Part shown: positions 38,463-58,091 of the stretch, one piece after another
Layout: every line of letters starts with the position of its first letter
Position numbering within the stretch: position 1 is the stretch's first letter
Assembly: GCA_018662225.1 (NCBI GenBank)
Contig: JABJGO010000088.1
Span: 42,830 to 106,829, forward strand
Source of the DNA: Rhodospirillales bacterium
GTDB taxonomy: Bacteria > Pseudomonadota > Alphaproteobacteria > Rhodospirillales > Casp-alpha2
Direction of reading: 5' to 3'
Length of the DNA stretch: 64,000 nt
The notes under the pieces: model-generated
Told to the model about the DNA's origin: nothing
The model's input: the letters and a program-made list of their open reading frames with translations, nothing else
Databases searched by the model: none
Translations under genes and position numbers: made by a program

Positions 38463-38467
38463 GACGA

Positions 38468-42445: not shown

Positions 42446-43201
42446 CTACCTCACCACCCGTGCCCGGGCTTTGGCAACGGCTTCCTGACGTTCCGGTGAA
42501 GACAGTAATTTTTTGCGCTCATTTTCCCAAAATTCAGGATCATAGCTGTCGCTGTCCATGGCGTTCAAAAGCCGCTTGGTTGCGTCCACCGCGCCTCGAA
42601 CATTGTCGCCAGCCCATTTGGCAATTGCCAGCGCGGCCTCAAGGCAGCTATCACTTTTGACAACGGATGAGACAATACCGGCATCAAGTGCCGCATCAGC
42701 ATCATACCGTTCGCCCAGGACCAGCAAGCTCATAATCGCATCGCGGCCCAACAATTTGCGCAAGCGTATCACTGATTTGGGACTGTACAGTAATCCTAGG
42801 CGCGTGGCGGGGACCTGAAATATGGCGTTCGACGCCGCAATCCGTACATCGCAGGTAACGGCTACGTCGAATGCGCCACCCATGCAGGGGCCATCAATGG
42901 CGGCGATGACCGGAACTGGGGCCTCGCGAATGGCTGTGGTAACAGCCTCAATAGCATCATCAACGGCCAGGTCCTCAATGGTGCCGTTTAACTCCGTCAA
43001 ATCACCGCCGGCGCTGAAGCATCCACCCGACCCGTGCAGGATGACTGCGCTTGTGTCATCTCTGACTTCACTGGTCAGGGCTTGATGGAGTTCACCGAGC
43101 AGAGCCCTTGACAACGCATTCTTGCGCTCGGGCCTGTTCAGGGTCAGGACAAGTGTGCCATCTTGATGATTAACGTTGATCAGTTCATTCATGCAAGACA
43201 C
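42446..43201 (-). CDS. Enoyl-CoA hydratase/isomerase family protein
   Basis: Crotonase signatures (FSAGGDL; DGPCMGGAF). Length is 251 aa. Confidence 0.8.
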   Translation of the reverse strand: MSCMNELINVNHQDGTLVLTLNRPERKNALSRALLGELHQALTSEVRDDTSAVILHGSGGCFSAGGDLTELNGTIEDLAVDDAIEAVTTAIREAPVPVIAAIDGPCMGGAFDVAVTCDVRIAASNAIFQVPATRLGLLYSPKSVIRLRKLLGRDAIMSLLVLGERYDADAALDAGIVSSVVKSDSCLEAALAIAKWAGDNVRGAVDATKRLLNAMDSDSYDPEFWENERKKLLSSPERQEAVAKARARVVR

Positions 43202-45429
43202 TCCTTGAATTGTGCTGCCTTCGATGATTCGTGATCATTCAGCGTGCGCCAAACCTGTTCCGGTGTCATGGGTAAATTATACTGACGCACACCGATAGCG
43301 TCATAAATGGCATTAGCGACGCAACCCGCGACGGGGATTACCGGCGGTTCCCCAATTGTTTTGGCGCCTGCGGGGCCATTGTCTTCAAACACTGGTGAAA
43401 AATATACATTTACCTGGGGCACATCAGGGAAGGTGGGTACTCGGTCATCCAGATAGCTGGGATTTAGCAACTGGCCGTTCTTTGAAACGGACGTGGTTTC
43501 AGATAGTGCCATACCAAGCCCTTGTACAACGCCGCCAATGACCTGGCCGATGGCCCCAAGGGGGTTAATGATCGTACCCGCATCGTGGGCTGCCCAGTAT
43601 TCTTCAACGGTAGACTTGCCGGTGAGGGTATCAACCTTCACACAACAACCGTGTACAGCGAATGTGTAGGCCGAGGCGATATTGCCGAAACCATGTATGT
43701 CAGCCGCGATCACACCCTTGGGTTTGTACTGTCCGGCTGCATGGAGTTCGTTTGCTCGACTTTTTGCAAGGGCGAGTTTGGCAATCTCGGCAATGGATGC
43801 ATTGGTTGAAATGCCGAGTTCCTTTACCAGGCTCATGCAGTTTTCCATGAATTTCTGGCACGCAATAATAGCGGCATGGGCGACAAAATATGAAGTTCGG
43901 CTGGCATAACTTCCGCGCCCGAAAGGCCCCGTTGCCGTATGCCCAAGCACAATTCTGAGCGAGTCCCGCGTAACACCCAGCTCCCGTTCAACGGTATGCC
44001 GGAGAACTTCTGCCGTACCACAACCCAGTTCCACCTCGCCCGAGGCGACGCAAATCATGCCATCAGCATTGACATCGATAGTGACATTGGAAATATCCGA
44101 GGTCTCATCATAGCCAGAGTTGCTGACACAATGGATGGCAGTGGAGAGGCCATAACCGTATTTAAAACGATCACCGGAACCAGACCGCTCCTGATTGCGA
44201 TGAGCCTGCATTTGTTCCTCGACTGTATCGAGGCAATCACCGTATCCACAGCTACTGATTTCCCATCCATGGATGCTGGTATCACCAGCGCCAACTGTAT
44301 TTCGGCGGCGCATATGCGCAGGATCGAGCCCAATCTTGCGGGCAAGTTCATCGACCAGTTGTTCCTGGGCAAATGTTGACTGCGGAATGCCGAAACCGCG
44401 GAAGCATTCGGTTGGCATATTGTTAGTATAAATCAATTGCCCCCGAGCCCTGACGGCGGCGTACTTGTAGAGATTGTCACCGCGCACCGCCGATGCCAGC
44501 ATGACTGGTGGCCCATGCAAGGTATAGGCACCATTGTCGGCCCAAACTTCAGTTTCCTTGGCCACAAGCTCGCCGTCTGATGTAGCACCGATGCGCATCT
44601 TTAAACGTGTAGCAAGACGGGTTCGGCCCGCCATCATGTCATCGCGATGTGATAGTACCAAGGCAACGTCACGCTGCAGTTTATGAGCAAACGCGAGGCA
44701 AACCAGATGCGTGGGATGTTCCCACTTGGCACCAAACGATCCACCCATGTCAGGTGTTACCACATCAACCGTGGCACCCCAGTGCTTTGCGATTTCGCTA
44801 TAACGACTGGCCAGCACGGAGGGGGCATGGGAGGCACTGACCAGTTCCAGATGGTCGCCACTTACACGAACGAAACACGCGCGAGGTTCCAGGTAGGCAT
44901 GAGGAACAGCCGCTGTTTCAAAGATGCCTTCCACCCAATGGGTGGCGCGTGCGGCGGCGTCATGCCAATCACCGGGGTTGGCAGAAAACCGGTCAGCAAC
45001 ATTATCTGGACAGGCTTCGTGCAGCGGTACTTCAAGCGCAAGGGCATCATCCACTCTGATGGCGTGAGGCAGAATTTCATAATCAATTTCAAGTGCGGCA
45101 ATTCCGGCGATCAAGGCTGCGTCATTGATGGCTGCCACAGCAGCCACGCCTTCACCCACATAACGAACGTGCGACGCTAAAACCGGTTCATCTGCAATGT
45201 GATGGCCCAGGGTAATATCCGCAAAATCTTCGGACGTCAGGACGCCCAGCACACCAGGAATGTTCATTGCTTTTTCTGTATTGATGCGAACAACACGGGC
45301 ATGGGCGTGAGGGCTACGGGCCAACCCGGTTACAGCTGTTTCCGGCGGGATCAAATCAGCCGTATAATGCGCCCGCCCGCAGCAACGATCCGAGATAGTC
45401 GCAATCTTCGGCGGGGGCATATATGACAT
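43189..45429 (-). CDS. Molybdopterin-binding large subunit of a xanthine dehydrogenase/CO dehydrogenase-family hydroxylase
   Basis: About 746 aa with a/b-hammerhead and MoCo-binding domain similarity. Start set at MSYMPP (45429), where TAATG overlaps the small-subunit stop. Confidence 0.85.
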   Translation of the reverse strand: MSYMPPPKIATISDRCCGRAHYTADLIPPETAVTGLARSPHAHARVVRINTEKAMNIPGVLGVLTSEDFADITLGHHIADEPVLASHVRYVGEGVAAVAAINDAALIAGIAALEIDYEILPHAIRVDDALALEVPLHEACPDNVADRFSANPGDWHDAAARATHWVEGIFETAAVPHAYLEPRACFVRVSGDHLELVSASHAPSVLASRYSEIAKHWGATVDVVTPDMGGSFGAKWEHPTHLVCLAFAHKLQRDVALVLSHRDDMMAGRTRLATRLKMRIGATSDGELVAKETEVWADNGAYTLHGPPVMLASAVRGDNLYKYAAVRARGQLIYTNNMPTECFRGFGIPQSTFAQEQLVDELARKIGLDPAHMRRRNTVGAGDTSIHGWEISSCGYGDCLDTVEEQMQAHRNQERSGSGDRFKYGYGLSTAIHCVSNSGYDETSDISNVTIDVNADGMICVASGEVELGCGTAEVLRHTVERELGVTRDSLRIVLGHTATGPFGRGSYASRTSYFVAHAAIIACQKFMENCMSLVKELGISTNASIAEIAKLALAKSRANELHAAGQYKPKGVIAADIHGFGNIASAYTFAVHGCCVKVDTLTGKSTVEEYWAAHDAGTIINPLGAIGQVIGGVVQGLGMALSETTSVSKNGQLLNPSYLDDRVPTFPDVPQVNVYFSPVFEDNGPAGAKTIGEPPVIPVAGCVANAIYDAIGVRQYNLPMTPEQVWRTLNDHESSKAAQFKECLA

Positions 45430-45884
45430 TATCCGACTTCCACAATAGCTTTGGTCAGCTGCTGATATCCACCGCAGCGGCAGATATTTCCCGCCACCAG
45501 TTTCGATACCGGCTCGACCCCCGTTTCGGTTCCGCCATCCTTGATCCAGGAACTCATTACGGCCATGCCGCCTGTGCAAAACCCACACTGTACGCCGCCG
45601 TGCTTCTCACAGGCGCAGGAAAATCTTTCGAGATGATCCTTTTGTAATCCTTCAACAGTCGTGATTTCGCGCCCCTCAACCACGCCACTGAGCAGCAGGC
45701 ACGAACACATGGGTTGTCCATCCACCAGTACCGTACAGGCACCGCAGTCACCTTCGCTGCAACCGTCTTTTACCCCGGTCAGGCCAAGTTTGGTGCGCAG
45801 AAAATCGATCAATCGCCGTGCGTACCAGACGTCGGGGATATCGTGGTTATGACCATTTACACGTACTGACTTATTGGCCATCAT
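45429..45884 (-). CDS. [2Fe-2S]-binding small subunit of the molybdenum hydroxylase
   Basis: CSEGDCGACTV and CGFCTGG...CRCGGY motifs. Length is 151 aa. Confidence 0.9.
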   Translation of the reverse strand: MMANKSVRVNGHNHDIPDVWYARRLIDFLRTKLGLTGVKDGCSEGDCGACTVLVDGQPMCSCLLLSGVVEGREITTVEGLQKDHLERFSCACEKHGGVQCGFCTGGMAVMSSWIKDGGTETGVEPVSKLVAGNICRCGGYQQLTKAIVEVG

Positions 45885-46813
45885 GACCTCTCTCCATATC
45901 GCGCAGCAGCCTGTTTGATCACATCGACAACCAGCGCTCTGATCAATTGGTGTCGATACCCGGCACTGGCGCGCTGATCGGAAATCGGTTCACACATTTG
46001 GCTGGCCGCATCGGCACACTGACTCAATCTGTCTTCTGAAAGCGGGTATCCAATCAGACCATCCGCTGCCGAGCTGGCATCAATAGCCGTTTCCCCAACA
46101 GCGCCAAGAACCAGCATGACAGATTTTAGGGCTACGCCGTCTTGATCGAAATCAAGTTTGACCGCCACACTGGCAAAGGCCAGATCCAGGGCAGCACGCT
46201 GGGTAAACCGCTGATAGGCACTGGTTTGATTTTTACCCAACCTGGTCAGGGTCAGGCCTGTAACCAGTTCTCCATCACGCAGCGCCGTTTTGCCGGGGCC
46301 TATCATGAAGTTCTTCAGGTCAATACGTCGGGTGTTGTTTTTTCTGTCAGCGGTTTCAACGACGCAGTCGTGGACGAGTAGACCGGGTACGGTATCGGCG
46401 GCCGGTGAAGCCGTGCAGACGTTACCAACAATGGTGGCCTGATTGCGCAACTGTACGGAGCCGACCAATTGCGCCCCGTCGGCCACGGCGGGTGCCTTAT
46501 GGCGGAAAGATTGAGAGCGAATTAGTTGGGCCAGAGGCGTTGCCGCGCCGATGCGAATTGTCTCGCCCGATTCTTCAAACTCCTTAAGGGCCTCAATCCC
46601 ACCGGTCCAGACCAGATGGTGCGGCGCACCACGTTGGGCCGCCACTAACAGGATATCCGTGCCGCCGGCGATCAGGCTGGCTCCCTGATGCATGTGTTCG
46701 AACACCTCGGCCAGATCAGTCGGGCATTGCAGTGCAATTTCCGGTAAGTGACTGGGGCGCAGAGAAGAAGCGGGTTCAATGATAAAGTCAGGTAACATAA
46801 GCGGTTTACACAA
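45881..46813 (-). CDS. FAD-binding medium subunit of the molybdenum hydroxylase (CoxM/XdhB-like)
   Basis: LIAGGTDILL FAD-binding motif. The start is ambiguous: TTG at 46813 or ATG at 46798. Confidence 0.8.
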   Translation of the reverse strand: MCKPLMLPDFIIEPASSLRPSHLPEIALQCPTDLAEVFEHMHQGASLIAGGTDILLVAAQRGAPHHLVWTGGIEALKEFEESGETIRIGAATPLAQLIRSQSFRHKAPAVADGAQLVGSVQLRNQATIVGNVCTASPAADTVPGLLVHDCVVETADRKNNTRRIDLKNFMIGPGKTALRDGELVTGLTLTRLGKNQTSAYQRFTQRAALDLAFASVAVKLDFDQDGVALKSVMLVLGAVGETAIDASSAADGLIGYPLSEDRLSQCADAASQMCEPISDQRASAGYRHQLIRALVVDVIKQAAARYGERS

Positions 46814-46857: not shown

Positions 46858-46889
46858 GTAAACTTGAAAAAGGGTTCGCATTACGTAAC
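46858..46889 (+). promoter_or_regulatory. Copy 2 of the conserved 32-nt motif GTAAAC-N21-GTAAC
   Basis: GTAAACTTGAAAAAGGGTTCGCATTACGTAAC. It ends 9 nt before the LysR ATG (46899), in the region divergent from the Mo-hydroxylase/cofC/fbiC operon. Confidence 0.65.
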
Positions 46890-46898
46890 AATATTTTC

Positions 46899-47804
46899 AT
46901 GCAAAACCTCAGAAAATATCTACCTCCCGTTAATAGTCTGGTTGCCTTCGAGGCTTCGGCCCGACATTTGAGTTTCACCCGCGCCGGACAAGAGCTGTTG
47001 ATTAGCCGTGAAGCGGTTTCCCGGCAAATCCGGATTCTTGAAGATTATCTGAGGATAAAGCTGTTTGTGCGGTTGTATCGGGCACTGGAACTGACGCCGG
47101 CGGGCGAAGAAATGCAGGTTGTCGTTTCAGAAAGCCTCGACAGGATCGCGCGAACCGCTACGTCTCTTCAACACGACAACCAACCTACCAAAATTTCTGT
47201 TACGGCGACCATTGCCATTACGACATTCTGGCTAACCCCCAGATTGTCGCACTTCAGCGACACCCATCCCCAGGTGGATATCAGTATCAGTTCGTCGGAT
47301 ACGCCTCTCGACATGATGGACGCTGGCAGCGACGTGGGTATTCTTTACGGCAAGGGGAAATGGCCGGGTTACAAGTCTACGCATCTTTTTGATGTGGAGA
47401 ATTTTCCGATATGTTCGCCGCGTTATCTGGAAGAAACTGATCCGATCTCCTCTTTGGAGGATTTGAAGAACCATACCTTGCTCTATCTGAACGGGAGCAT
47501 GCATGCGATCGAAAACTGGGATTGGTGGATGGAAAGCCTCGGTATGGAAATGCCTGCCAATGTTCGCAAGCTGGGATTCGATAGTTACGATAATGTGATT
47601 CAGGCTGCCATGGACAGCCAGGGAATCGCATTGGGGTTTACCAACCTGTTGGGTGACCAGTTATCCAAAGGCCGCCTGGTCCGTCCTTTGGAACAGGCAT
47701 TCAGCAAGGGTAACGGCATCTATCTGGTGGTGCCGCGCGGCAAACCAATGAGTGCCAATGCGCAGAAGTTCTTCGACTGGGTTAAGAGTGAAGTTGAAGC
47801 GTAA
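46899..47804 (+). CDS. LysR-family transcriptional regulator
   Basis: HTH FEASARHLSFTRAGQELLISREAVSRQI. Start set at MQNLRKY. No Shine-Dalgarno sequence is visible upstream. Confidence 0.85.
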   Translation: MQNLRKYLPPVNSLVAFEASARHLSFTRAGQELLISREAVSRQIRILEDYLRIKLFVRLYRALELTPAGEEMQVVVSESLDRIARTATSLQHDNQPTKISVTATIAITTFWLTPRLSHFSDTHPQVDISISSSDTPLDMMDAGSDVGILYGKGKWPGYKSTHLFDVENFPICSPRYLEETDPISSLEDLKNHTLLYLNGSMHAIENWDWWMESLGMEMPANVRKLGFDSYDNVIQAAMDSQGIALGFTNLLGDQLSKGRLVRPLEQAFSKGNGIYLVVPRGKPMSANAQKFFDWVKSEVEA

Positions 47805-47834
47805 AACGCCCCGGCGATCTTACATGAAGAAAAC

Positions 47835-47866
47835 GTTACGTTAGCCCAATCCTTTTTCAAGTTTAC
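47835..47866 (-). promoter_or_regulatory. Copy 3 (inverted orientation) of the conserved 32-nt motif
   Basis: The reverse complement reads GTAAACTTGAAAAAGGATTGGGCTAACGTAAC. It lies between the LysR stop and the LLM operon. Confidence 0.65.
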
Positions 47867-47960: not shown

Positions 47961-48962
47961 GTGCATATTGGAACGTCTTTGGGGATTAGCCCCCGCGAGC
48001 CGATCACACATACAGTAGACGTCGTTAAAAGCGCAGAAAATCTTGGTTTTGACAGCGCCTGGATTGCCGACGTGCAGCTTTCCATGAAGGATTGCTATAC
48101 GGCCATGCCGTTATGCGCCGTGGCCACCTCAAAAATTCAAATCGGCACGGGCGTTACTAACCCGATTACCCGCGATCCAACGACCCTTGCGTGTTCCTTT
48201 ACGGCGCTCAACGAAATCAGTGACGGGCGGGCGATTTGTGGCATTGGTACCGGCTGGACCGGCGTTTTCTCTATTGGCAAGAAACCGTCGACCATCGATA
48301 ACCTGGAGCGATCCATCAACGACATCCATACGCTGACGGAAGGTGGGGACATCACCGGCCCGCACGGGATGGATTACCGATTGACCACCCATAATGGTCG
48401 TGTATCCGTCTATGTGGCTGCTAACCAGCCGCGTATCCTGCGTATGTGTGGCCGGGTTGCCGATGGCGTTATCATGATGGGTGGTGCCAACGAAGAGTTT
48501 ACAAAATGGCAAATTGATCTGGTTAAAGAGGGCGCTGAAGAAGTCGGGCGCGATTTCAACGAGATTACCCTGCATCTGTGGGCGGCGATCGGAATGGATG
48601 AAGACAAGGCACAGGGCCGCGAAGATGTCAGTCACTGGGCCGCATCCCAGGCCGAGACCTTCAGCCAGTGGAAACACACACCAGATTTTCTGGAAAAATG
48701 GCGCGACGACTTTACCGCTGCCAGTAACGCCTATGATCGTCTTGAGCACATGTCTTCTCATGCCAGCCACAAGAGCGTTCTGTCACCGGAATTCATTGAC
48801 TGGGTCGCCTTCACCGGCGGGCCACAGGAATGCCGAGACCAGATCAGCAAGTTGAAGGCACTCGGTCTTCATGGTGTCACGCTGGCCTTCCGTGCCGGAG
48901 CCGGCGGTCGTCAGGCTCGTATGGAAGAACTGTCCCGAGAAATCATTGAACACTTCAAGTAA
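47961..48962 (+). CDS. LLM-class (luciferase-like, Mer-like) oxidoreductase, probably F420-dependent
   Basis: LLM family blocks (GFDSAWIADVQ; GTGVTNPITRDP; ISDGRAICGIGTG). GTG start at 47961, 7 nt after GGAGGA. Confidence 0.75.
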   Translation: MHIGTSLGISPREPITHTVDVVKSAENLGFDSAWIADVQLSMKDCYTAMPLCAVATSKIQIGTGVTNPITRDPTTLACSFTALNEISDGRAICGIGTGWTGVFSIGKKPSTIDNLERSINDIHTLTEGGDITGPHGMDYRLTTHNGRVSVYVAANQPRILRMCGRVADGVIMMGGANEEFTKWQIDLVKEGAEEVGRDFNEITLHLWAAIGMDEDKAQGREDVSHWAASQAETFSQWKHTPDFLEKWRDDFTAASNAYDRLEHMSSHASHKSVLSPEFIDWVAFTGGPQECRDQISKLKALGLHGVTLAFRAGAGGRQARMEELSREIIEHFK

Positions 48963-48968
48963 GAGAAC

Positions 48969-49748
48969 ATGATGAGTAGCGACAAAACCATTGTCCTGAT
49001 TCATGGACTGTCCGAAGAACGCAGCGCCTGGAAACGGCAGATTGCGTTCCTTAGCGATCACATGAACGTGGTCGCCTATGATGTGCGGGGGTTCGGTTCC
49101 AGCCCGGTTGGGGCCGGTAACGGTACCGTGCATCAGATGGCCGACGATCTGGCCCAGATTGTCAGCGCCCAAGATGGCAGCAATGGGGGGACAGGGTCGG
49201 TTTATCTGTGTGGTTTTTCCATGGGTGGCGTCATTTCCCAGCGCTTTGCGCTGGATTTTCCTGATCTGTGCAGCGGGCTAATTCTTATCGCCAGTTCCTG
49301 TGTGGTTGGGCACCCGGGTGCTGAGTTCTTCACCCAACGCTTGAGTGACGTAGAGGCTGGTGGCCTGGATACACTGAATGCCACCAATACCAGTGACGCC
49401 CGGGGCTGTTTTGCGCCTGATAAGGAAAGCAACGAACCACTGATCGCTGAGTACCAGAAACTGCGGACTGAAGCCGTGCGTGATGTTAATGGTTATCTGA
49501 ATGCCGGGCGTGCCATGCTGCGGCTTAATACCGAGCCGATGATCCAGGACCTGGGTGCGATTCAACACCCCACACTGGTCATTGCCGGCGAGCTTGATCC
49601 CTTTTGCCCGCCAAGAGCATCGGAAATGATTACGGATGGTATCCCCAGTGCAGAAATGTGCGTGATCCCCGCTGTGGGGCATTGCCTGCATTGGGAAGAG
49701 CCGGACGTCACCAATAATCTGATCAAGGAATTTGTCGACACACATTAG
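48969..49748 (+). CDS. Alpha/beta hydrolase
   Basis: Nucleophile elbow GFSMGG and a C-terminal His (VGHCLHWE). Confidence 0.8.
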   Translation: MMSSDKTIVLIHGLSEERSAWKRQIAFLSDHMNVVAYDVRGFGSSPVGAGNGTVHQMADDLAQIVSAQDGSNGGTGSVYLCGFSMGGVISQRFALDFPDLCSGLILIASSCVVGHPGAEFFTQRLSDVEAGGLDTLNATNTSDARGCFAPDKESNEPLIAEYQKLRTEAVRDVNGYLNAGRAMLRLNTEPMIQDLGAIQHPTLVIAGELDPFCPPRASEMITDGIPSAEMCVIPAVGHCLHWEEPDVTNNLIKEFVDTH

Positions 49749-49765
49749 GTGAGGCTGGAACGATC

Positions 49766-50554
49766 ATGAGCGATGAAGAAAAAACAGAAGAAGGCCCTCC
49801 CCTGATTTGGGAAAAGCGCGGCCACGTTGCGATTCTGACCCTGAACAGGCCCAAGGCCATGAATTCATGGGATCCGGAAATGATGGACGAACATCGCCGG
49901 TTGCTAACTGAATTTGAAGATGATGATGACTTGCGGGTTCTGATCTACACGGGTGAAGGCCGAGCGTTTTCCACCGGCATCAATATTCGCAAAGCACCTG
50001 ACTATCTGTATCTTAACCCTAAAGAACGCACCACCAAATGGATCACCCCGAATTCCATCAAGCTGAGCAAGCCAACCATCGCAGCCATTAACGGCTTTGC
50101 CATTGGCGGCGGTCTGGAACTGGCTCTCGGGTGTGACATGCGGATCATGGCCGAAAGCGCCAAGGTGGGTCTGTCAGAAGTCAAACTCGGCGCACTGCCG
50201 GGCGGTGGCGGAACCCAGTGGTTGCCACGCCTCATCGGACTTGGCGATGCCTTGATGATGATGCTAACGGGTGAGCCCATTGATGCGGCAGAAGCATTCC
50301 GTTTGCGTCTGGTGCAGAAAGTTGTTCCCGATGACCAACTTTTGGACGAGGCCATGAAAATTGCCGAAGCCATCGCGGCCAATGGCAAAACCGCTGTGCG
50401 CCTGACCAAGGAAGTTGCCTTGCTGGGCCTCAATGCTTCGCTGGCCGACGCATTGTGGCTCGAAGAAATTTACTTTGCTCGCAACCGTGTTGATGCCGCT
50501 GATGAAATCAAGGAGCGTCTGGACGCTTTCCAGAACGCGGCAAAGAAAAAATAG
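49766..50554 (+). CDS. Enoyl-CoA hydratase/isomerase family protein
   Basis: Crotonase fold with NGFAIGGGLELALGCD. Confidence 0.85.
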   Translation: MSDEEKTEEGPPLIWEKRGHVAILTLNRPKAMNSWDPEMMDEHRRLLTEFEDDDDLRVLIYTGEGRAFSTGINIRKAPDYLYLNPKERTTKWITPNSIKLSKPTIAAINGFAIGGGLELALGCDMRIMAESAKVGLSEVKLGALPGGGGTQWLPRLIGLGDALMMMLTGEPIDAAEAFRLRLVQKVVPDDQLLDEAMKIAEAIAANGKTAVRLTKEVALLGLNASLADALWLEEIYFARNRVDAADEIKERLDAFQNAAKKK

Positions 50555-50565
50555 GAACACCGATT

Positions 50566-51372
50566 ATGGATTTAGGATTAAAGGGTAAGACTGCCATTGT
50601 AACCGGCGCCGCTTCCAACATTGGCAAGGCCATTGCTGTCGGTTTGTTCGGTGAAGGGGCCAATGTTGTCATCATTGATCTTGATGTGGCGCAGGCCGAA
50701 AAAGTTGTCGCCGACCTCAATGGCAATTCAGACGGCAATGAAGCCATGTTTGTAAAGGCCGATGTGGGCAACCGTGAAGAAGTTGGCGCTATGGCCGAAG
50801 CTGTCATGACCAAGTTCGGCTCCGTTGAAATTCTGGTCAATAATGCAGGCTGGACAGCCAACAACCTGTTTCTGAACAAGCCATACTCTGACTTTGAAAA
50901 AGAAGTCTCCATTAACCTGTGGGGTCCCATCAACTGCATTCATGCCATCGCGCCATCCATGATCGAAAGCAAATACGGCAAGATCGTCAATATTGGATCG
51001 GATGCCGGGCGGGTGGGTGAATATAACGAGGCTGTTTATGGCGCTTGCAAGGCTGGCCTGATTTCATTGACCAAGACTTTGGCTATCGAGTTTGGCAAGC
51101 ATGGCCTCAATTTGAATTGTGTTTGTCCTGGCTTGACCCTGCCCGACAATCCCGCAGCCGATGCTGGTATCGATAGCCTGTGGCATCCGGACAGCCCGCA
51201 AAGCAAGATTTTCCGTGATGAGGAAACCATGAAGAAGGTGGTGAAGCACTATCCCCTTCGTCGCCATGGCGTGCCGGAAGATCTGGTTCCCATGGTGATG
51301 ATGATGGCTTCGGATAAGACGTCCTATGTCACCGGCCAAACCATAAGCGTCAGCGGCGGTTACGCCATGTAA
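50566..51372 (+). CDS. SDR-family oxidoreductase
   Basis: TGAASNIGKA cofactor motif, NNAG, YGACK catalytic motif. Confidence 0.85.
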   Translation: MDLGLKGKTAIVTGAASNIGKAIAVGLFGEGANVVIIDLDVAQAEKVVADLNGNSDGNEAMFVKADVGNREEVGAMAEAVMTKFGSVEILVNNAGWTANNLFLNKPYSDFEKEVSINLWGPINCIHAIAPSMIESKYGKIVNIGSDAGRVGEYNEAVYGACKAGLISLTKTLAIEFGKHGLNLNCVCPGLTLPDNPAADAGIDSLWHPDSPQSKIFRDEETMKKVVKHYPLRRHGVPEDLVPMVMMMASDKTSYVTGQTISVSGGYAM

Positions 51373-51397
51373 GGCGAGAGACTGGAAGGGAGACAAC

Positions 51398-53044
51398 GTG
51401 AGCGATCTGGCGGAAACATACCGCGCCGAGGGTTACTGGACGGACAAGCTTCTGACGGATTTTTTTGAAGCTGCCGTGAAAGCGACTCCTGACAAGGTCT
51501 TTGTGAAAGATGATCGTCACGGTGCCTTTAGCTATGCGGACACGTCGCCAATCGTGCTAAAACTGGCGGCGGCCTTGCAGGAAAAAGGTATCGGACGGGA
51601 TGACAAATTCGTTGTAGCCCTGCCAAACTGGTATCACGTGCCGGTATTTGCTTTGGCTCTTAACTATCTGGGTGCGGTCTGCGTTCACATGCCGGCGACT
51701 GGCGGTGCGCATGAGTTCTCCGGTGTCTTATCCGTTTCCGAAGCCAAAGGCATTGTTGTACCGCGCTCCTTTGGCAGCAGCGATCATGTGCAGATGATCA
51801 ATAGCATTGCCAGTGATCTGGAAAATCTGGAGCTGTGCATTGCCGTTGATGGTGATCCTGAGGATTCTAAATGGTTGGGTTTTGATGAGCTGATGGCGGG
51901 TGCCCAGGAAAGCGGTCCGGACCACAGCCACAGACCGGACGCATCGGACGTGACAGCCCTGATCTTCACGTCTGGATCATCGGGCGCGCCCAAAGGTGTG
52001 GTGCATAGTTCCAACTCCCTGACGGCATTGAATACAACCCTTTACCCAATCTTTGATTTTGGATCTGATGAAATCATTTTCATGGGTGCACCGCTGGGGT
52101 TTTCGGCGGGCCTCGCCCATGGTTTACGCCTAGCCGTGGTGCTTGGCTGCACGCTGATCCTGCAGGAAGTCTGGAATTCAGAGCGGGCGCTTGAAACCAT
52201 GGCCCGGGAGAAGGCTACGTTCACCCTGACCACGCCCACACTGTTACATGATATTTTCCGCAGCCCGGCGTTCGATGAGTTCAGTGAGCAGATTTGCCTG
52301 AAACTCATGCTGTGCGGTGGTATGTATGTTCCCACACCCTTGCTGCGGGAAGCCAGGGAGCGTTGGCCCAATACACTCACATCTGTGATCTGGGGCATGA
52401 CCGAAGGGATTGGTACGTGCAGCCGTTATGACACGCCCGTGGACAAGCTCGTGGAAACCGACGGTCGACCGTTTCTTGGTACGGAACTGAAAATCGTCCG
52501 CCAGAACGATGAAGCCGCGGCACCGGGCGAAATTGGAGATCTGGTCATGCGTGGGCCACAGCTATTCCTGGGTTACTACAAGCGACCCGAGTTGGATGCA
52601 GACGTCTTCCTTGCGGGCGATCCAACCGGTCGCTGGTTCCGGACAGGCGATGTCGCCTCCATTGATGAAGATGGTTATCTGAAACTGCGTGGTCGCAAGA
52701 AGGAGTTGATCATTCGCGGTGGGGCCAACCTGTCTCCATCCGAAATTGAGGAACAACTGGCCAGTGATGCGCGAATTCACGCTGTGCTGGTGGTTGGTAT
52801 CCCGGACGAACGATTGGGCGAAAAAGTCTGCGCATGCATCATCCCGACCCCGGGTTGTGAAAATTTCTGTCTGGATGACCTCATCGAAATCGCAGGTCTA
52901 TCGGGGCTTTCCAAGGCCAAGTGGCCGGAACGATTGGAAATAGTCGAAGCATTTCCTACGACATCAGCAGGCAAGATCCAGCGCCACGTGTTACAAGAAC
53001 AAGTGTGCAAGAAAATTGAAGCTGAACAAGCGGGAGAGGCATAG
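51398..53044 (+). CDS. AMP-binding acyl-CoA synthetase/ligase
   Basis: FTSGSSGAPKG, WGMTEG, FRTGD and a C-terminal GKIQR. GTG start. Confidence 0.85.
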   Translation: MSDLAETYRAEGYWTDKLLTDFFEAAVKATPDKVFVKDDRHGAFSYADTSPIVLKLAAALQEKGIGRDDKFVVALPNWYHVPVFALALNYLGAVCVHMPATGGAHEFSGVLSVSEAKGIVVPRSFGSSDHVQMINSIASDLENLELCIAVDGDPEDSKWLGFDELMAGAQESGPDHSHRPDASDVTALIFTSGSSGAPKGVVHSSNSLTALNTTLYPIFDFGSDEIIFMGAPLGFSAGLAHGLRLAVVLGCTLILQEVWNSERALETMAREKATFTLTTPTLLHDIFRSPAFDEFSEQICLKLMLCGGMYVPTPLLREARERWPNTLTSVIWGMTEGIGTCSRYDTPVDKLVETDGRPFLGTELKIVRQNDEAAAPGEIGDLVMRGPQLFLGYYKRPELDADVFLAGDPTGRWFRTGDVASIDEDGYLKLRGRKKELIIRGGANLSPSEIEEQLASDARIHAVLVVGIPDERLGEKVCACIIPTPGCENFCLDDLIEIAGLSGLSKAKWPERLEIVEAFPTTSAGKIQRHVLQEQVCKKIEAEQAGEA

Positions 53045-54210
53045 TGGATTTTTCCCTCACATCTGATCAGCAGGCGATTTGTGAAACGGTCCAGAAAATC
53101 TGTGACGATTTCGACGATGATTACTGGCTGGAACACGATAAATCCGGCGAATTTCCCGACGACTTCCATATGGCCATGGCAAATGGCGGCTGGCTTGGCA
53201 TTGCCATGCCTGAAGAATTCGGTGGTGCTGGACTGGGTGTTACCGAGGCGGCCCTGATGATGCATAAAGTCGCAAGTTCATCCGGGGCCATGGCGGCTGC
53301 ATCGGCTATCCACATCAACGTGTTCGGCCCACACGCCATTGTGGTTTTTGGTAGCGAAGAACAAAAAAAGAAATGGTTGCCTGATCTGATCGAAGGGCGT
53401 GTGAAGACCTGTTTCGGGATCACCGAGCCCGACGCTGGACTTAACACCACATCCATCAAGACGCGCGCTGAGCGTGACGGCGACAGCTACAAGGTTTTCG
53501 GCAAGAAGGTGTGGACGTCAACGGGTCTGCAGGCCGACAAGATTATGCTGCTGACCCGCACCACACCCAAGGAAGAGTGCGAACGCCCCACCGATGGCAT
53601 GACGCTGTTTTACACGGATCTGGACCGTAAATACTGTGACGTGCGGGCAATCCCCAAGATGGGTCGCGCGGCGGTACCCTCATGTGAAACCTTTATTGAC
53701 GGCTTGCCCGTGCCGGCTGAGGACCGCATCGGTGAGGAAGGCAAGGGGTTCAAGTATATCCTGCACAGTCTTAATCCAGAACGGGTGCTGGTTGCCATGG
53801 AAGGCATTGGCATTGGACAGAATGCGTTGGCGCGGGCCGCCCAGTACGCCAAAGACCGCGTTGTGTTCGACCGCCCTATTGGCATGAACCAATCCATTCA
53901 GCACCCGCTGGCTGAGAACTGGATTGAGTTGGAGGCCGCTTTCCTCATGGCCATGAAAGCGGCATATCTCTATGACACGGACCAGCCGTGTGGCCTCGAA
54001 GCCAATGCGGCCAAGTATCTTGGCGGCGAGGCTGGCTTCAAGGCCTGTACACAAGCCATTATGACCCACGGCGGCATGGGTTACGCCAAGGAATTTCATG
54101 TGGAGCGACTGTTGCGCGAAGTCTTGATTACCCGCCTGGCCCCCATTAGCCCGCAACTAATTCTATGCAACATCGCCGAAAAGGCGCTGGGGTTACCCAA
54201 GTCATACTGA
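53044..54210 (+). CDS. Acyl-CoA dehydrogenase
   Basis: 388 aa ACAD fold (GITEPDAGLN; C-terminal catalytic region). GTG start overlaps the upstream stop (TAGTG). Confidence 0.85.
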   Translation: MDFSLTSDQQAICETVQKICDDFDDDYWLEHDKSGEFPDDFHMAMANGGWLGIAMPEEFGGAGLGVTEAALMMHKVASSSGAMAAASAIHINVFGPHAIVVFGSEEQKKKWLPDLIEGRVKTCFGITEPDAGLNTTSIKTRAERDGDSYKVFGKKVWTSTGLQADKIMLLTRTTPKEECERPTDGMTLFYTDLDRKYCDVRAIPKMGRAAVPSCETFIDGLPVPAEDRIGEEGKGFKYILHSLNPERVLVAMEGIGIGQNALARAAQYAKDRVVFDRPIGMNQSIQHPLAENWIELEAAFLMAMKAAYLYDTDQPCGLEANAAKYLGGEAGFKACTQAIMTHGGMGYAKEFHVERLLREVLITRLAPISPQLILCNIAEKALGLPKSY

Positions 54211-55449
54211 CGTCAGCGTTTTCCATTGTGTCCGTAACCCATGCCTGAATTCCGGGGCGGCCAACTCTATCAGTGCCTCGGCGCGGGCTTGTACAGGCAG
54301 ATGCTTGATGCGCTGCGCGCCGAACTCTGTCACCACATAATCTATGTCACTGCGGAGTGCCGTGGCTGGTGTGTTCGAAGTCAGTGCAGGCACAATGCGT
54401 GAAACTGTGCCACCGGAGGCTGTGGCGTTGAGCGCGATGATGGAGCGTCCACCATTCGAGAGTGCTGCACCGCGCATCATATCCACCGAGCCGCCGGTAC
54501 CACTGACTTGGCTTCCACCCAGCACGTCGGCGTTGATCTGTCCGAACAGATCGATCTCCAGAGCCGAGTTAATGGAAACGAAATTGTCAATCTGGCGCAA
54601 GGTACCCGGATCATGGGTATGGTTGACCGGGCGGAAGCTTAGCCGCTCGGATTTGCCAACCCAGTCAATTAACTTTTGTGAGCCCAATGTGGCACCGGTC
54701 GTCAGCGTGCCCTTGATGTTACCGGCATTGGCCAGTGCCATCACACCGTCGGTAATCATACCCGAATGAAACTTCAGATCGTTCTTGTCTGTGAGCGCGG
54801 CCAACGTGGCGTCTGGAATGGCCCCAATCCCGATCTGGAGACAGTCGCCATCGTTGATCAACTGAGCCACCGACGCGCCAATGGCACGCGTCGCATCACC
54901 CGCTTTCGCGACGGGAAACGTAAGGATCGCACGATCCGTTTTTACGGCATGGGTTAGTCGGTCCGCTGGCATTCGGAGACTGTCAACAGGTAATGGTTGT
55001 CGGGCATTTATCTCACCGATCACCAGCTTGGCCTTGCCCAGAACGGCGGGTAGAAAATCCGCACTGATACCGTGGCTGATCATGCCGTCCTCGTCTGCTG
55101 GTGGCAGTTGCACGATAACCGCATCGATATCCAGTTCGCATTCCAGATAGTCATAGATGGCACGATATTGCAGGGGCAGATAATCGACCCGACCCGCCGC
55201 CATGCTGTCGCGATTCTGCGGTGTTGCGAAAAAGGCGGTTGAACGCGCGTCAGGATGAAAGCTTGAAAAGTCCACGCCATTCATGCCAGGCACCGAAATC
55301 GAGATGAAATGAACCCCGGCACAGGCATCGCCTGAATTTCCCAAAGCATCGAGAATATCACTGGGTTCCGCCGTGGCGCCCGCTACAAAAACCGTCATGC
55401 CGGGTTTTAGCAGTTCAGCGACCTGATCGGCTTCAACCCAGTTGGTCAT
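54202..55449 (-). CDS. Acetyl-CoA hydrolase/transferase-family CoA-transferase
   Basis: 415 aa with family-typical GGSVDM and overall layout. Confidence 0.8.
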   Translation of the reverse strand: MTNWVEADQVAELLKPGMTVFVAGATAEPSDILDALGNSGDACAGVHFISISVPGMNGVDFSSFHPDARSTAFFATPQNRDSMAAGRVDYLPLQYRAIYDYLECELDIDAVIVQLPPADEDGMISHGISADFLPAVLGKAKLVIGEINARQPLPVDSLRMPADRLTHAVKTDRAILTFPVAKAGDATRAIGASVAQLINDGDCLQIGIGAIPDATLAALTDKNDLKFHSGMITDGVMALANAGNIKGTLTTGATLGSQKLIDWVGKSERLSFRPVNHTHDPGTLRQIDNFVSINSALEIDLFGQINADVLGGSQVSGTGGSVDMMRGAALSNGGRSIIALNATASGGTVSRIVPALTSNTPATALRSDIDYVVTEFGAQRIKHLPVQARAEALIELAAPEFRHGLRTQWKTLTSV

Positions 55450-55464: not shown

Positions 55465-56898
55465 TTAAGCACTTACCGGTGGGCGACGATCCGCCCATGG
55501 TTTTGCCTGCTCAAGCTGGGCAGCCAATGACAGCAGCGTGGCCTCGTCCCCATAGCGCCCGGTAAAGTGTGTACCAATGGGCAGGTTGGCATCATTCCAG
55601 TGCAGCGGCAATGAAATACCCGGCTGTCCCGTGGCATTGGCGATCAGGGTGAAGCCGGTAAAATCGCCCAGTCGTTTAAAGTGCTCGTCCCGGGTTTCCG
55701 GTGTGTATTCGAAGTAGCCCAGCGGCACCGGTGGTTGGGCCAGAGTGGGCGTCAGCCACACGTCATAATCTTCGAAGAAAAGGCCGAAGTCGCGATTGAT
55801 TTTTTGCAACTGTTGCATCGCGAGCAGGTACTTGCCGCCGCTCATGCCAAGGCCGTGCTGGTACATTTTCCAGGTTACCGGCTCGAAGTGCTCTTCGGCT
55901 GGCTCGCGCCCGGTGATCTGCTGCCATCCCTGAATAGCCCAGACCAGATAGTTGGTGAATGCGATGCCAAAGGATTTCAGCATCGCCCGGCTGTCCACCT
56001 GGGGTGAGGCGATTTCCACATCGTGGCCCAGATCTTCACACAGTTTCGCGGTAGCGTGTGCTGCGGCAATACAATCGGCATGGGTTTCGGCACCGGTAAG
56101 AGGTTCCGTACCCAGAGCAATGCGCAGGCGCTTCGGGGTTTGTTTGATCTGTTCCAGATAGGGATACGCGGGTGGTGTAGGAGCATAAGGCTCACCCGGT
56201 ACAGAGCCGTTGGTGGCGTCGAGGATCGCCGCACTATCACGGACAGAGCGAGTTACCACGTGTTCGCAGATAATACCGCCCAGAATATCACCATAGTTTG
56301 GCGCCAGCGAGTTACGGCCACGCGTCGGTTTAAGACCCACCAGTCCACATGCCGAAGCGGGAATACGGATGGAGCCGCCGCCATCGTTGGCATGCGCCGC
56401 CGCCACCATGCCCGACGCCACGGCAGCGGATGAGCCGCCACTGGAGCCGCCGGTGCCCCGGCTTAAATCCCACGGGTTGCAGGTCGGGCCATAGTGGCCG
56501 GGCTCGGTGGTTGGTAGTAGTCCGTATTCTGAGGAATTGGTTTTGCCCATGATGATCAGGCCTGCCTGCTTGTAACGGCGGACAAGTTCGCAATCTTCTT
56601 TTGAGACGTATTGTCCGGCAAGATAGGCCGAGCCATCCGTGCGTGGCATGCCCTCACATTCTGACACCAGATCTTTTAACAAGAATGGAACACCGCAGAA
56701 GGGAGCATCTGAATGATCCAATGCCCTGGTCGCTGCATCGCGTGCCATATCGAAGAAAGGCATGATCACGGCGTTCAGGTCCGGATTTAATTTCTCAATG
56801 CGATCAATCGCAGCATTGACCATTTCAAGCGGTGTAACGTCCTTTGAACGGACCAGTTCCGCCTGCGCCGTAGCGTCTAAAAATGCAATATTTTCCAT
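55465..56898 (-). CDS. Amidase (amidase-signature family)
   Basis: [14 protein letters not shown] signature and a Ser-cisSer-Lys context. Confidence 0.85.
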
Positions 56899-56991: not shown

Positions 56992-57023
56992 GTAAACCTG
57001 AAAAAATCACCTTTCCGGGTAAC
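56992..57023 (+). promoter_or_regulatory. Copy 4 of the conserved 32-nt motif (more diverged spacer)
   Basis: GTAAACCTGAAAAAATCACCTTTCCGGGTAAC, between the divergent amidase and LLM genes. An extra GTAAC lies at 57076-57080. Confidence 0.55.
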
Positions 57024-57122
57024 ATATTCATCATGTTATTTTTTGTGTTGCGCCCGTCAAATTTCTGTATTTAACGTAACCTTGGGGCCTTGGACAATTT
57101 GCGAATATTGGGGATTGACCTA

Positions 57123-58091
57123 ATGGTAAAAATTTCAGATGTCAGCGTTATGATGTTCCCCTGGGGTGTGGAAACACCCAAGGTGAGCGAAATCGTTGAA
57201 GCCGCTCAACTGGCTGAAGAGTTGGGGTTCTATTCCGTAACACTGCCCATGCACATGACCATGCCGCCGGGCTGGCTGTTTACCACGTTTCCTAATCAGG
57301 ACGTGCTCGATGCTATGGTTGTTTTACCAGCCATAGCGGCGGGAACCAAAACGCTCAGGCTCGGCACTAACTCGGCACTCCTGCCCCTGCTGCCGCCCTA
57401 CGAATGGGCCAAGTATTTTTCCACGCTCGACGTCATGTCGGAGGGCCGTGTGATAATCGGTGCCGCCATGGGGTGGTGGCATGAAGATTTCGGATCCGTC
57501 GGCGTCAACAGCAAGAAACGCGGCAAGCTGTTTGACGAGCAGCTTGAAATTCTTACCCGTCTATGGACCGAAGACCGGATTACGTTCGAAGGCGAGCACT
57601 ATCAGATTGATGATATTCCCATGCAACCTCGACCCGTTCAGGCCAAGCCGCCTATCTGGATTGGCGGCGGTGTAAAATCTATCGATAGGGCGGCCAAATA
57701 CGGCGAATGCATTGTGCCCTTCTGGCCATCACCCGATGACGTCAGAGACCTGTGGAAGCCCAAGTTGATGGAAGCGGCCGCCCGGTTTGGCACAACACCC
57801 AAACTGTCATCCTTTACGTTCGCCTATATCGCCGACAGTGATGAGGACCTCGAGAAATACATGCCAGTTCTGCGTAATTGTGTGGCATTTGAAGACCCAA
57901 GTATTGAGCCTTCCAATGTGACGATCAGTGGATCACCCGAACAATGTGCTGAGAAAATCATGGCGCTTTCCGATGCGGGGATTGATCACTTTGTGGTTGA
58001 GTTCCAGTTCCACGGATTGGAATCCGTTGCCTTCGGCATGAACCAGTTGGAAAAATTTGCGACGAAGGTCGCGCCATTGCTAACAGATTAA
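57123..58091 (+). CDS. LLM-class oxidoreductase resembling the probable-F420-dependent Rv2161c-type subfamily
   Basis: Blocks LRLGTNSALLPL, LDVMSEGRVIIGAAMGWWHEDF, RGKLFDEQLEILTRLW and PPIWIGGG. Start set at MVKISD. Confidence 0.75.
   Translation: MVKISDVSVMMFPWGVETPKVSEIVEAAQLAEELGFYSVTLPMHMTMPPGWLFTTFPNQDVLDAMVVLPAIAAGTKTLRLGTNSALLPLLPPYEWAKYFSTLDVMSEGRVIIGAAMGWWHEDFGSVGVNSKKRGKLFDEQLEILTRLWTEDRITFEGEHYQIDDIPMQPRPVQAKPPIWIGGGVKSIDRAAKYGECIVPFWPSPDDVRDLWKPKLMEAAARFGTTPKLSSFTFAYIADSDEDLEKYMPVLRNCVAFEDPSIEPSNVTISGSPEQCAEKIMALSDAGIDHFVVEFQFHGLESVAFGMNQLEKFATKVAPLLTD

Follow-up and report, generated by a model that had tools for sequence, protein, structure and literature searches.

A conserved gene island linking cofactor F420 to a putative ring-acid degradation pathway in marine Proteobacteria

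Many aerobic bacteria of soil and sea carry genes for the synthesis of cofactor F420, and it may be asked what the cofactor is used for in these organisms. According to a 2021 review, studies of F420-dependent enzymes in bacteria had until then been confined to Actinobacteria (PMC8498797). The question is posed sharply by a 64,000-nucleotide stretch of DNA from a Rhodospirillales bacterium (contig JABJGO010000088.1, positions 42,830 to 106,829; hereafter the window), where cofC, cofD, cofE and cofGH, by which the host is equipped to make F420, lie beside catabolic genes. A first-pass annotation had read the region 42446-58091 as a dedicated F420-dependent degradation route and had suggested an N-heterocycle or an amide as substrate. 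The present analysis supported the reading of a dedicated route through synteny, a shared regulatory site and the co-occurrence of cof genes, and such a substrate is plausible. The island extends beyond that region, since it includes F420 biosynthesis and F420-reducing genes from position 31847 onward. Its gene content and order are conserved, as is a cis-element, and its key gene co-occurs with FO synthase and with F420-reducing modules. The best explanation of the whole is the F420-linked catabolism of an N-heteroaromatic carboxylate, controlled as one regulon; its probability was estimated at about one half.

Gene families were assigned by Pfam and NCBIfam profile scans of the window proteins. 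The scans bore out the gene content first described for the region: a three-subunit Mo-hydroxylase in CoxMSL order (46813-43189), a plus-strand operon of six genes with short gaps (47961-54210) and a convergent pair of CoA-transferase and amidase genes. The six-gene operon starts with LLM1 (47961..48962; PF00296, 153 bits), a Mer-like luciferase-like hydride transferase with predicted F420 use. It is followed by a serine alpha/beta hydrolase, PcaD-like or esterase-like (48969..49748; PF00561), the enoyl-CoA hydratase ECH1 (49766..50554; PF00378), a short-chain dehydrogenase/reductase (SDR, 50566..51372) with BadH, the 2-hydroxycyclohexanecarboxyl-CoA dehydrogenase (TIGR03206), as best family, an AMP-forming acyl-CoA ligase of the aryl or alicyclic acid type (51398..53044) and an acyl-CoA dehydrogenase with all three domains of that family (53044..54210). 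The gaps range from -1 to 25 nt. The operon converges on the minus-strand genes of a 4-hydroxybutyrate-type CoA-transferase (54202..55449) and an amidase-signature enzyme (55465..56898; PF01425, 324 bits).

The Mo-hydroxylase, of the xanthine dehydrogenase (XDH) family, is encoded on the minus strand by the FAD subunit gene coxM (45881..46798 or 46813, two starts being possible; PF00941 and PF03450), the 2x[2Fe-2S] subunit gene coxS (45429..45884; PF01799, PF00111 and the cysteine pattern) and the molybdopterin (Mo) subunit gene coxL (43189..45429; PF01315, PF02738 and PF20256). The mechanically called coxL reading frame of 799 aa overlaps coxS; an in-frame ATG at 45429 (TAATG overlap) gives 746 aa, a length that fits the orthologues (705-757 aa). 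The operon continues with the crotonase gene ECH0 (42446..43201; PF00378) and runs unbroken past it through cofC (TIGR03552, 145 bits) and cofGH (NF006687, 1126 bits; a fused FO synthase), together at 39347..42438 on the minus strand and both above cut-off, and through two further genes to its end at 37671. ECH0 and cofC are separated by 7 nt, and cofC and cofGH overlap by 4 nt. Beyond it lie cofE-cofD (35956..37667, plus strand; tblastn orthologues in loci L005, L010, L025 and L033) and, on the minus strand, genes for the beta and alpha subunits of a 2-oxoacid oxidoreductase together with an FrhB-type subunit (31847..35828), a putative F420-reducing module. The gene of a GcvA-type LysR regulator (lysR, 46899..47804, plus strand; PF00126 and PF03466; NF008352 271 bits, just under the cut-off of 288) is placed between the cox and LLM1 operons, divergent from coxM. 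Consensus promoter and terminator scans gave background levels (15 vs 14 and 21 vs 21), so the operon limits are drawn from spacing only.

The conservation of this arrangement was evaluated by a scan for LLM1 with one genome per species. It returned 77 loci, onto which the window proteins were mapped by tblastn. With an orthologue threshold of at least 59% identity, 35 loci were retained, and 17 of these were well covered (at least 8 kb upstream and at least 6.5 kb downstream of LLM1). The 35 loci belong mostly to marine Proteobacteria (Rhodospirillales, Thalassospiraceae, Halieaceae, Woeseia, Steroidobacteraceae, Arenicellales, Acidiferrobacteraceae and Lysobacterales), and a few are in bins labelled Planctomycetota or Verrucomicrobiales. 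Homologues of LLM1 at 59-94% identity are numerous in marine metagenomes. Thirteen of the 17 well-covered loci show the order LLM1-hydrolase-ECH1-SDR (type A), and in every type-A locus the hydrolase gene directly follows LLM1. Orthologues of ECH0 were found in 14 of the 17 loci, of the acyl-CoA dehydrogenase and of the amidase in 11 each, of the CoA-transferase in nine, of the ligase in eight and of the Mo-hydroxylase in seven, a second, 30%-identical Mo-hydroxylase being present in three more. The acyl-CoA dehydrogenase is the most conserved protein, with 75-89% identity in most type-A orthologues and lower values in a few loci. Ligase and Mo-hydroxylase occur together in seven loci and are both missing from nine; the ligase stands by itself in one locus and the Mo-hydroxylase in none (raw Fisher p = 4e-4). 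The two form an upper module that is gained or lost as one.

The gene order varies around this core. In three loci from Arenicellales and Acidiferrobacteraceae (L029, L032 and L063), LLM1 is immediately preceded by coxMSL, which is encoded on its strand, while the order cofGH-cofC-ECH0-coxLSM is shared by the gammaproteobacterial loci L008, L015 and L018 and by L011 and L012. Type B, which comprises four loci and a family-level relative (G035, LLM 40% identical), has a divergent LLM gene facing ligase-hydrolase-SDR-amidase-crotonase-MaoC, accompanied by a TetR regulator, a PanF-like symporter and a TonB receptor; no Mo enzyme was found in the type-B loci. An isolate, Seongchinamella sediminis, is among the carriers of the type-B cluster. 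Regulators follow lineage and type: lysR orthologues occur only in alphaproteobacterial loci, a GbdR-like AraC regulator in gammaproteobacterial loci and TetR in type B. In the gammaproteobacterial loci, as in L008 (6624-16691), the GbdR-like AraC takes the place of LysR and an ADP-forming ligase resembling 4-hydroxybutyrate-CoA ligase that of the CoA-transferase; no amidase gene was found within 10 kb in L008.

An independent search, started from the Mo subunit, led to the same kind of neighbourhood. The Mo-subunit clade is sharply bounded, its members having at least 44% identity and the next sequences 35% at most. It includes an untyped assembly (L090) with ligase-hydrolase-amidase-LLM-coxS-coxL-coxM-SDR on one strand, and a metagenome-assembled genome of Actinomycetia (L088) with coxMSL divergent from ligase-ligase-hydrolase-LLM-SDR-amidase-crotonase. 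The LLMs of both are 37-40% identical to LLM1 over the full length. The amidase is also present in the distant clusters L006, L010, L088 and L090. Mycobacterial LLM homologues (about 34% identity) with a Mo subunit 4 kb away were treated as weak and were not used. The synteny obtained from both searches, across many proteobacterial orders and beyond, rules out a chance neighbourhood, a concern that had been attached to the first description. Among 61 relatives of the window genome, LLM1 was present in only three, and both congeners are without it. Such a patchy distribution suggests horizontal transfer, with which L007, a 74%-identical metagenomic version of the island, fits: a transposase gene of the IS240/IS66 type (19156-19851) is located at its edge.

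The second line of evidence is regulatory. The shared motif pointed out earlier was confirmed: the 16-mer GTAAACTTGAAAAAGG occurs in exactly three copies in the 3.5-Mb genome, all of them in the island, as against fewer than 0.01 copies expected by chance for one given 16-mer (our own estimate). A longer site of 33 bp, GTAAAC-N21-GTAAC, has this 16-mer as its 5' end. A position weight matrix was built from 16 sites, and in the genome-wide scan sites a, b and c took the top three places with 48-49 bits, followed by matches of 26.6, 16.1 and 15.0 bits (rank 6). Site a (35884..35916, plus strand, 47.9 bits) lies between frhB and cofE, 55 nt upstream of the start of the frhB module; site b (46858..46890, plus strand, 49.0 bits) is in the divergent coxM/lysR region; and site c (47834..47866, minus strand, 48.3 bits) is inverted and lies 94 nt upstream of LLM1. 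The match of rank 6 is a weak fourth copy (56992..57024, plus strand, 15.0 bits) between the amidase gene and the second LLM gene, LLM2. The GTAAAC ends of the four copies face, at 44-94 nt, the starts of the frhB-2-oxoacid oxidoreductase operon, the operon from coxM onward, the operon from LLM1 onward and the amidase-CoA-transferase pair. In the same order, the opposite ends face cofE-cofD, lysR, nothing and LLM2.

These places are kept in other genomes. Site a is conserved upstream of cofE in G014 (L005), L007 and L049, site b immediately before the ATG of lysR in L007, L011, L012, L013, L025 and L049, and site c, in position and orientation, in L007, L011, L012, L025 and L049. Overall, the three main places are retained, with two changes at most in the 16-mer, in up to six genomes whose LLM1 is 63-91% identical. 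No amidase-side site of at least 14 bits was detected near the amidase gene in L004, L007 and L025. The earlier assumption of co-regulation thus appears sound for the operons preceded by strong sites, whereas the copy at the amidase and LLM2 is weak. That the genes form a coherent pathway and regulon is held with high confidence, the regulon being predicted by phylogenetic footprinting. Site c is oriented towards lysR, into its 3' end, and TTCATG follows it at the same distance as in the copy before lysR. This flanking of lysR by inverted copies of the site is kept in five other genomes. Transcription from site c might run antisense through lysR; alternatively, the site may just serve the LLM1 promoter as its operator. 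The fourth-best match in the genome (26.6 bits, contig C92:497-529) is located about 650 nt upstream of genes for tyrosine and serine recombinases.

The third line of evidence concerns the supply of the cofactor. The cofC-cofGH genes are found inside the cox operon in the window, in close relatives and in the gammaproteobacterial version, and nine of the 17 well-covered loci have cof genes no farther than 10 kb from LLM1, arranged in at least three ways. A match to FO synthase was found in 31 of 32 LLM1-bearing genomes (29 fused and full-length, one split into cofG and cofH, one ambiguous) and was missing from one; the background among relatives of the window genome was 9/61. The gammaproteobacterial operon ends, after the acyl-CoA dehydrogenase gene, with an F420-dependent PPOX-class enzyme (TIGR03618). 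An orthologue of the island FrhB is present in 15 of the 32 genomes, usually within 8 kb of cofGH, and orthologues of the 2-oxoacid oxidoreductase and FrhB adjoin the cluster in L007, L049 and L029. Fno scored above cut-off in eight of the 32, and all four type-B genomes searched use it; a search of the window genome gave no Fno. One or the other is present in 22 of the 32 genomes, both at full score only in G072, with G073 near the cut-off, and the gene is mostly within a few kb of cofGH. A second FrhB-type gene was observed in the window genome outside the island (contig C97:11553-12056). Because two interchangeable F420-reducing modules travel with the cof genes, the conserved LLM is expected to consume F420H2.

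The opposite direction was also considered. LLM1 could be an F420-reducing dehydrogenase that turns a ring alcohol, lactol or carbinolamine into a lactone or lactam, to be opened by the serine hydrolase or the amidase, with F420H2 as a product that is passed on. Fgd, which oxidises glucose-6-phosphate, would be the model. The constant adjacency of LLM1 and hydrolase in type-A loci would suit such a sequence, Fgd, Adf and the hydroxymycolate dehydrogenase fHMAD are the next-best relatives of LLM1 after Mer, and Fno, present in the eight genomes mentioned, is a reversible enzyme. Against this, the reductase Mer is closer to LLM1 by seven orders of magnitude in E-value; the FrhB-type orthologue stands beside cof genes in 15 of 32 genomes, and that of the window, being coupled to a 2-oxoacid oxidoreductase, should only make F420H2; and no other conserved consumer of F420H2 was seen. 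A dehydrogenase role was therefore judged unlikely, and the reductive direction is preferred for LLM1.

In order to place LLM1 itself, both sequence and fold were compared. Among solved structures, the first ten of 11 sequence matches are F420 enzymes, with Mer as the best (111 bits), followed by Fgd, hydroxymycolate dehydrogenase and Adf. The AlphaFold2 model (pLDDT 93.2) is a luciferase-like (beta-alpha)8 barrel, and Foldseek again gave Mer as the best match (TM 0.82-0.84, E 4e-26), the first 19 matches being all F420 enzymes and FMN-dependent LLMs appearing only from rank 20. In jMer, a non-prolyl cis-peptide between Gly61 and Val62, after beta-3, backs F420 (PMC11094777). These residues align with G64-V65 of LLM1, which are invariant at the sequence level in 17 family members; the feature also occurs in FMN luciferases. 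On this basis LLM1 very probably uses F420, and the overall link of the island to the cofactor is strong but circumstantial.

The rank of the FMN enzymes bears on another explanation, in which LLM1 is an FMN-dependent Baeyer-Villiger-type monooxygenase and an alicyclic ketone is degraded via lactone formation, hydrolysis, CoA ligation and beta-oxidation, the F420 genes being accidental neighbours. Such a route has reportedly been proposed for LLM-rich SAR202 bacteria. The set of LLM, hydrolase, ligase and beta-oxidation enzymes does resemble camphor-type pathways, and AliA, BadH and AliB are the best or near-best families of the ligase, the SDR and the acyl-CoA dehydrogenase. This explanation was considered very unlikely: besides the late appearance of FMN LLMs in the fold comparison, no flavin reductase was found in any cluster, the cof genes belong to the same operon, have the regulatory site in common with the other units and are present in 31/32 genomes, and the amidase and the Mo-hydroxylase would be left without explanation.

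The close relation to Mer raises the further idea of a true methylene-tetrahydropterin reductase (Mer/MTHFR-like) that serves MttB/corrinoid demethylation, the CoA enzymes being unrelated. Mer is indeed the best match of LLM1 by structure and by sequence, and an MttB cassette adjoins LLM1 in L035 and is near it in the window. The idea is hardly credible, however. The scores with the Mer equivalogs were far under the cut-offs (TIGR03555 135 vs 349; NF002619 157 vs 276), and LLM1 stands beside the hydrolase, crotonase and SDR genes in more than 30 loci and beside MttB in only two. The catalytic Glu6 and the pterin-binding Asp96 of Mer (PMC11094777) are replaced as well, Glu6 aligning with Gly8 of LLM1 (or with Ser6 when ungapped) and Asp96 with Trp99. 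LLM1 was thus rejected as a true Mer.

If LLM1 is an F420H2-dependent reductase of the Mer fold, its partners may tell what it acts on. The best solved relatives of the ligase were salicylate-AMP ligase (226 bits), DhbE, EntE and PchD; the score with the cyclohexanecarboxylate-CoA ligase model was 353 against a cut-off of 792. For the Mo subunit, the best solved relative was the alpha subunit of 4-hydroxybenzoyl-CoA reductase (4-HBCR; 278 bits, next 215). It carries the motifs GGSFG and GEPPV, and its segment KTIGEPPVIP contains the GEPP glutamate, which we take to be equivalent to the catalytic Glu E1261 of bovine XDH. The FAD subunit is collinear with the 287-aa CutM over its whole length and lacks the [4Fe-4S] insertion that marks the 4-HBCR FAD subunit. 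A true 4-HBCR was rejected for that reason and by the scores (alpha 392 vs 995, gamma 118 vs 258, beta 88 vs 405). Identity with CO dehydrogenase was rejected too: the active-site loops AYxCSFR (form I) and AYRGAGR (form II) are both missing from the Mo subunit, and TIGR02416 gave 197 vs 991. The enzyme looks, by these motifs and matches, like a hydroxylase that may bind aroyl-CoA.

The remaining enzymes were characterized in the same way. The SDR is not a member of BadH (206 vs 431 for TIGR03206). The motifs GGGLELAL and SEVKLG of ECH1 supply both catalytic glutamates, while ECH0 (GGAFDVAV and VPATRLG) has Asp and Ala at the two hydratase Glu positions and has oxepin-CoA hydrolase, PaaG-type isomerases and methylmalonyl-CoA decarboxylase among its best family and structure matches. 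The alpha/beta hydrolase shows the nucleophile elbow GFSMGG (TIGR02427 127 bits, under cut-off). The acyl-CoA dehydrogenase (155 vs 575 with AliB) carries a Glu in a 'PER' motif, presumably the catalytic base at the position of the isovaleryl-CoA dehydrogenase type, with none at the medium-chain acyl-CoA dehydrogenase position. The CoA-transferase is closest to 3eh7 (264 bits). The best solved relative of the amidase was the cyclic-amide hydrolase NylA (3a2p, 303 bits; next 167). No thiolase was seen in or beside any conserved cluster. Because of the relatives of the ligase, the Mo subunit, the SDR and the amidase and the lack of thiolase, the substrate is pictured as a ring carboxylate that is processed as a CoA thioester and opened by amide hydrolysis. 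That it is a ring acid, hydroxylated as a CoA ester by the Mo enzyme, is rather probable. Because both cluster types and also the distant clusters include an amidase, and that of the window is nearest NylA, a nitrogen atom may be placed in the ring, at even odds; a pyridine carboxylate in particular is rather doubtful.

A different class of substrate is brought up by some of the neighbours. A zwitterionic quaternary ammonium acid or a related osmolyte, such as a compound of the carnitine, butyrobetaine, homoserine-betaine or pyridinium-betaine type, could be degraded by a CoA-dependent, beta-oxidation-like route. The Mo enzyme would then oxidise or reduce an aldehyde or a pyridinium, and LLM1 would reduce an iminium or a pyridinium. 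In L035 (2760-14953, an uncultured alphaproteobacterium), one strand encodes a dimethylglycine-dehydrogenase-like protein, MttB, a corrinoid protein, RACo and DUF1638, with LLM1-hydrolase-ECH1-SDR-ligase directly after them. In L034 (1818-6996), a BKACE gene (3-keto-5-aminohexanoate-cleavage type) and a BCCT transporter gene precede the amidase and CoA-transferase genes, and a carnitine-dehydrogenase-like gene is also present (15886-16857). The gammaproteobacterial regulator is GbdR-like (318 bits), the LysR of the window is nearest to GcvA and choline-sulfate regulators, and an MttB cassette is placed in the window 1 kb past LLM2. Such neighbours were found only in a minority of loci, however, and the nearest relatives of the ligase are aryl-acid adenylases and not CaiC-type enzymes. 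The homarine operon homABCDER encodes, among others, the FAD protein HomA, HomB, the peptidase HomC and the aldehyde-dehydrogenase-like HomD (PMC13236597). Compared by descriptions, these families differ from those of the window, so identity with this operon was rejected, which excludes only that pathway. A betaine-type substrate was accordingly regarded as improbable. A pyridinium betaine such as trigonelline would merge this proposal with that of an N-heteroaromatic acid, and, to judge from the layout of L035, the pathway may receive an N-methylated precursor. As to the neighbours themselves, a BKACE or a carnitine-dehydrogenase-like gene was observed beside the cluster in five loci (L034, L023, L030, L036 and L020), each kind in three, and in L034 the BCCT gene is directly upstream of the amidase/CoA-transferase pair.

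For F420-linked catabolism of an N-heteroaromatic carboxylate, the points that count against it should be weighed together. The BCCT transporter, the GbdR-like regulator, the MttB cassette and the BKACE and carnitine-dehydrogenase-like genes of L034, L035 and L008 repeatedly hint at the metabolism of a betaine or carnitine and not of a pyridine acid. LLM1 is under the cut-off of every F420 LLM family, the best being TIGR03842 (161 vs 295 bits), and it could be a dehydrogenase given the reversibility of Fno. The synteny and co-occurrence counts, including the Fisher p, are raw and uncorrected for phylogenetic relatedness. The Mo-hydroxylase is missing from about half of the complete loci and is thus not essential to the core, and its similarity to 4-HBCR (about 278 bits) is no proof of a CoA-ester substrate. 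Finally, all the enzymes score below the curated cut-offs of substrate-specific families, so that the substrate is a guess.

With these points in mind, we infer a route that includes the use of F420 by LLM1, the reductive direction, the order of the steps and the substrate. The region from about 31847 to 58091 would be a self-contained, horizontally mobile F420 island, of which the region first annotated is the catabolic half. The GcvA-type LysR, responding to the substrate, would switch on four units via the shared 33-bp site, namely F420 biosynthesis, the F420-reducing 2-oxoacid oxidoreductase with FrhB, the Mo-hydroxylase operon and the six-gene LLM1 operon; the amidase/CoA-transferase pair would have the weak site only. 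An aromatic or heteroaromatic ring carboxylate, likeliest a pyridine-type N-heterocyclic acid, would be activated by the aryl-acid-type ligase. The 4-HBCR-like Mo-hydroxylase would then hydroxylate the aroyl-CoA beside the ring nitrogen to give a lactam (pyridone), and LLM1 would move a hydride from F420H2 onto the electron-poor ring. The remaining enoyl-CoA would be hydrated by ECH1 and oxidised by the SDR, and the cyclic amide or imide opened by the NylA-like amidase and the serine hydrolase. ECH0 would act as an isomerase, decarboxylase or hydrolase and not as a hydratase. The open-chain product would be finished by the acyl-CoA dehydrogenase and the CoA-transferase. Organisms without the module of ligase and Mo-hydroxylase would start from an already hydroxylated acid via the CoA-transferase.

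Some neighbours were left out of the pathway. The tail of the cofGH operon (37671..39328, minus strand) encodes a methylglutaconyl-CoA-hydratase-like crotonase (start ATG 38462; NF005675, 365 bits, cut-off 350) and an HMG-CoA lyase (NF004283, 432 bits, cut-off 246). Both were rejected as pathway members, being present in none of the 17 well-covered loci and kept only by the closest relatives, L011 and L012. LLM2 (57090..58091, plus strand) had been counted in the island as a second F420-type LLM. Its assignment to TIGR03619 held (175 bits vs a cut-off of 166.9), but its membership did not: it was found in none of the 17 loci and not in the closest relative, G014, and is linked to the island by the 15-bit site only. 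LLM2 is a lineage-specific neighbour outside the conserved set. Three other LLMs are encoded in the genome (contigs C65, C42 and C21), and these may be of either the F420 or the FMN type.

The enzyme families of the island are all known. What is new is the way in which they are combined and wired to F420 supply, and how widely the set is distributed in the sea. A literature search returned no paper describing the cluster. It gave nothing relevant on F420 together with XDH and crotonase in Proteobacteria, on furoyl-CoA dehydrogenase together with 4-HBCR, or on recent F420H2-dependent degradation clusters in Proteobacteria. The island offers a testable reason for the presence of F420 in a large group of marine Proteobacteria, as cofactor synthesis, cofactor reduction and one conserved catabolic pathway are physically joined, share a common cis-element and are inherited together. 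LLM1 may, tentatively, represent the first case of an F420H2-dependent dearomatising reductase or ene-reductase with a hydroxylated heteroaroyl-CoA as substrate. The island would then chiefly account for the acquisition of F420 biosynthesis by many marine Proteobacteria, along with that of a dedicated module for F420 reduction (2-oxoacid:F420 oxidoreductase or Fno). If so, a new type of heteroaromatic ring reduction, oxygen-tolerant and ATP-independent for a pyridone-type ring, would be added. Many of the genomes come from mesopelagic and oxygen-minimum waters, and a compound of the dissolved organic nitrogen would have a new sink there. The list of proteins concerned (ligase, Mo-hydroxylase, LLM1 and amidase) is short enough for expression and screening.

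Several known systems resemble parts of the proposed route. The cyclohexanecarboxylate and lower benzoyl-CoA pathway (AliA, AliB, BadK, BadH and BadI) likewise combines a ligase, an acyl-CoA dehydrogenase, a hydratase, an SDR and a ring opener of crotonase fold, acting on a ring-CoA without thiolase. It provides the best family of the window SDR and the second-best of the ligase, all far under the equivalog cut-offs, and differs in having no LLM, Mo-hydroxylase or amidase. The nearest solved relative of the window Mo subunit, 4-HBCR (PDB 1RM6), is likewise a three-subunit enzyme of the XDH family; since the window FAD subunit is without the [4Fe-4S] insertion, the window enzyme is not a reductive dehydroxylase. 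The furoyl-CoA dehydrogenase system of Cupriavidus basilensis (hmfABCDE) also has a three-subunit Mo enzyme of this family. In both 4-HBCR and hmf the substrate is an aroyl-CoA that a dedicated ligase supplies, and a crotonase-family gene adjoins in hmf. To our knowledge, the hmf route needs neither a reductase nor an amidase, and the literature search gave nothing that links the hmf/furoyl-CoA cluster to F420.

The step logic of the model is that of the pyridine-acid routes. In the degradation of nicotinate (Eubacterium barkeri, Azorhizobium caulinodans) and of isonicotinate via citrazyl-CoA (Mycobacterium sp. INA1), hydroxylation by a Mo enzyme is followed by a two-electron reduction of the pyridone and by opening of a cyclic amide or imide, which leads to a glutarate- or tricarboxylate-type product; the INA1 route runs on the CoA thioester. 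The enzymes are different: reduction there depends on ferredoxin or NADPH and is not carried out by an F420 LLM, the enamidase belongs to the amidohydrolase superfamily and not to the amidase-signature family, and the Mo subunit of E. barkeri is a far weaker match to that of the window (133 bits). We know of no genes for the INA1 route.

For LLM1, the nearest relative in sequence and fold is Mer (PDB 1Z69, 8QPL), which shares the (beta-alpha)8 fold and the Gly-Val backstop and adds the hydride of F420H2 to an iminium; LLM1 differs from it in the loss of Glu6 and Asp96. NpdC and NpdI, the Mer-like enzymes of picrate degradation in Rhodococcus, transfer the hydride of F420H2 onto an electron-poor aromatic ring. 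Hydrolytic ring opening follows, and CoA-type genes are present in the same cluster. From this Mer/NpdC/NpdI group, LLM1 is set apart by its partners, a Mo-hydroxylase and an amidase, and by its proteobacterial hosts.

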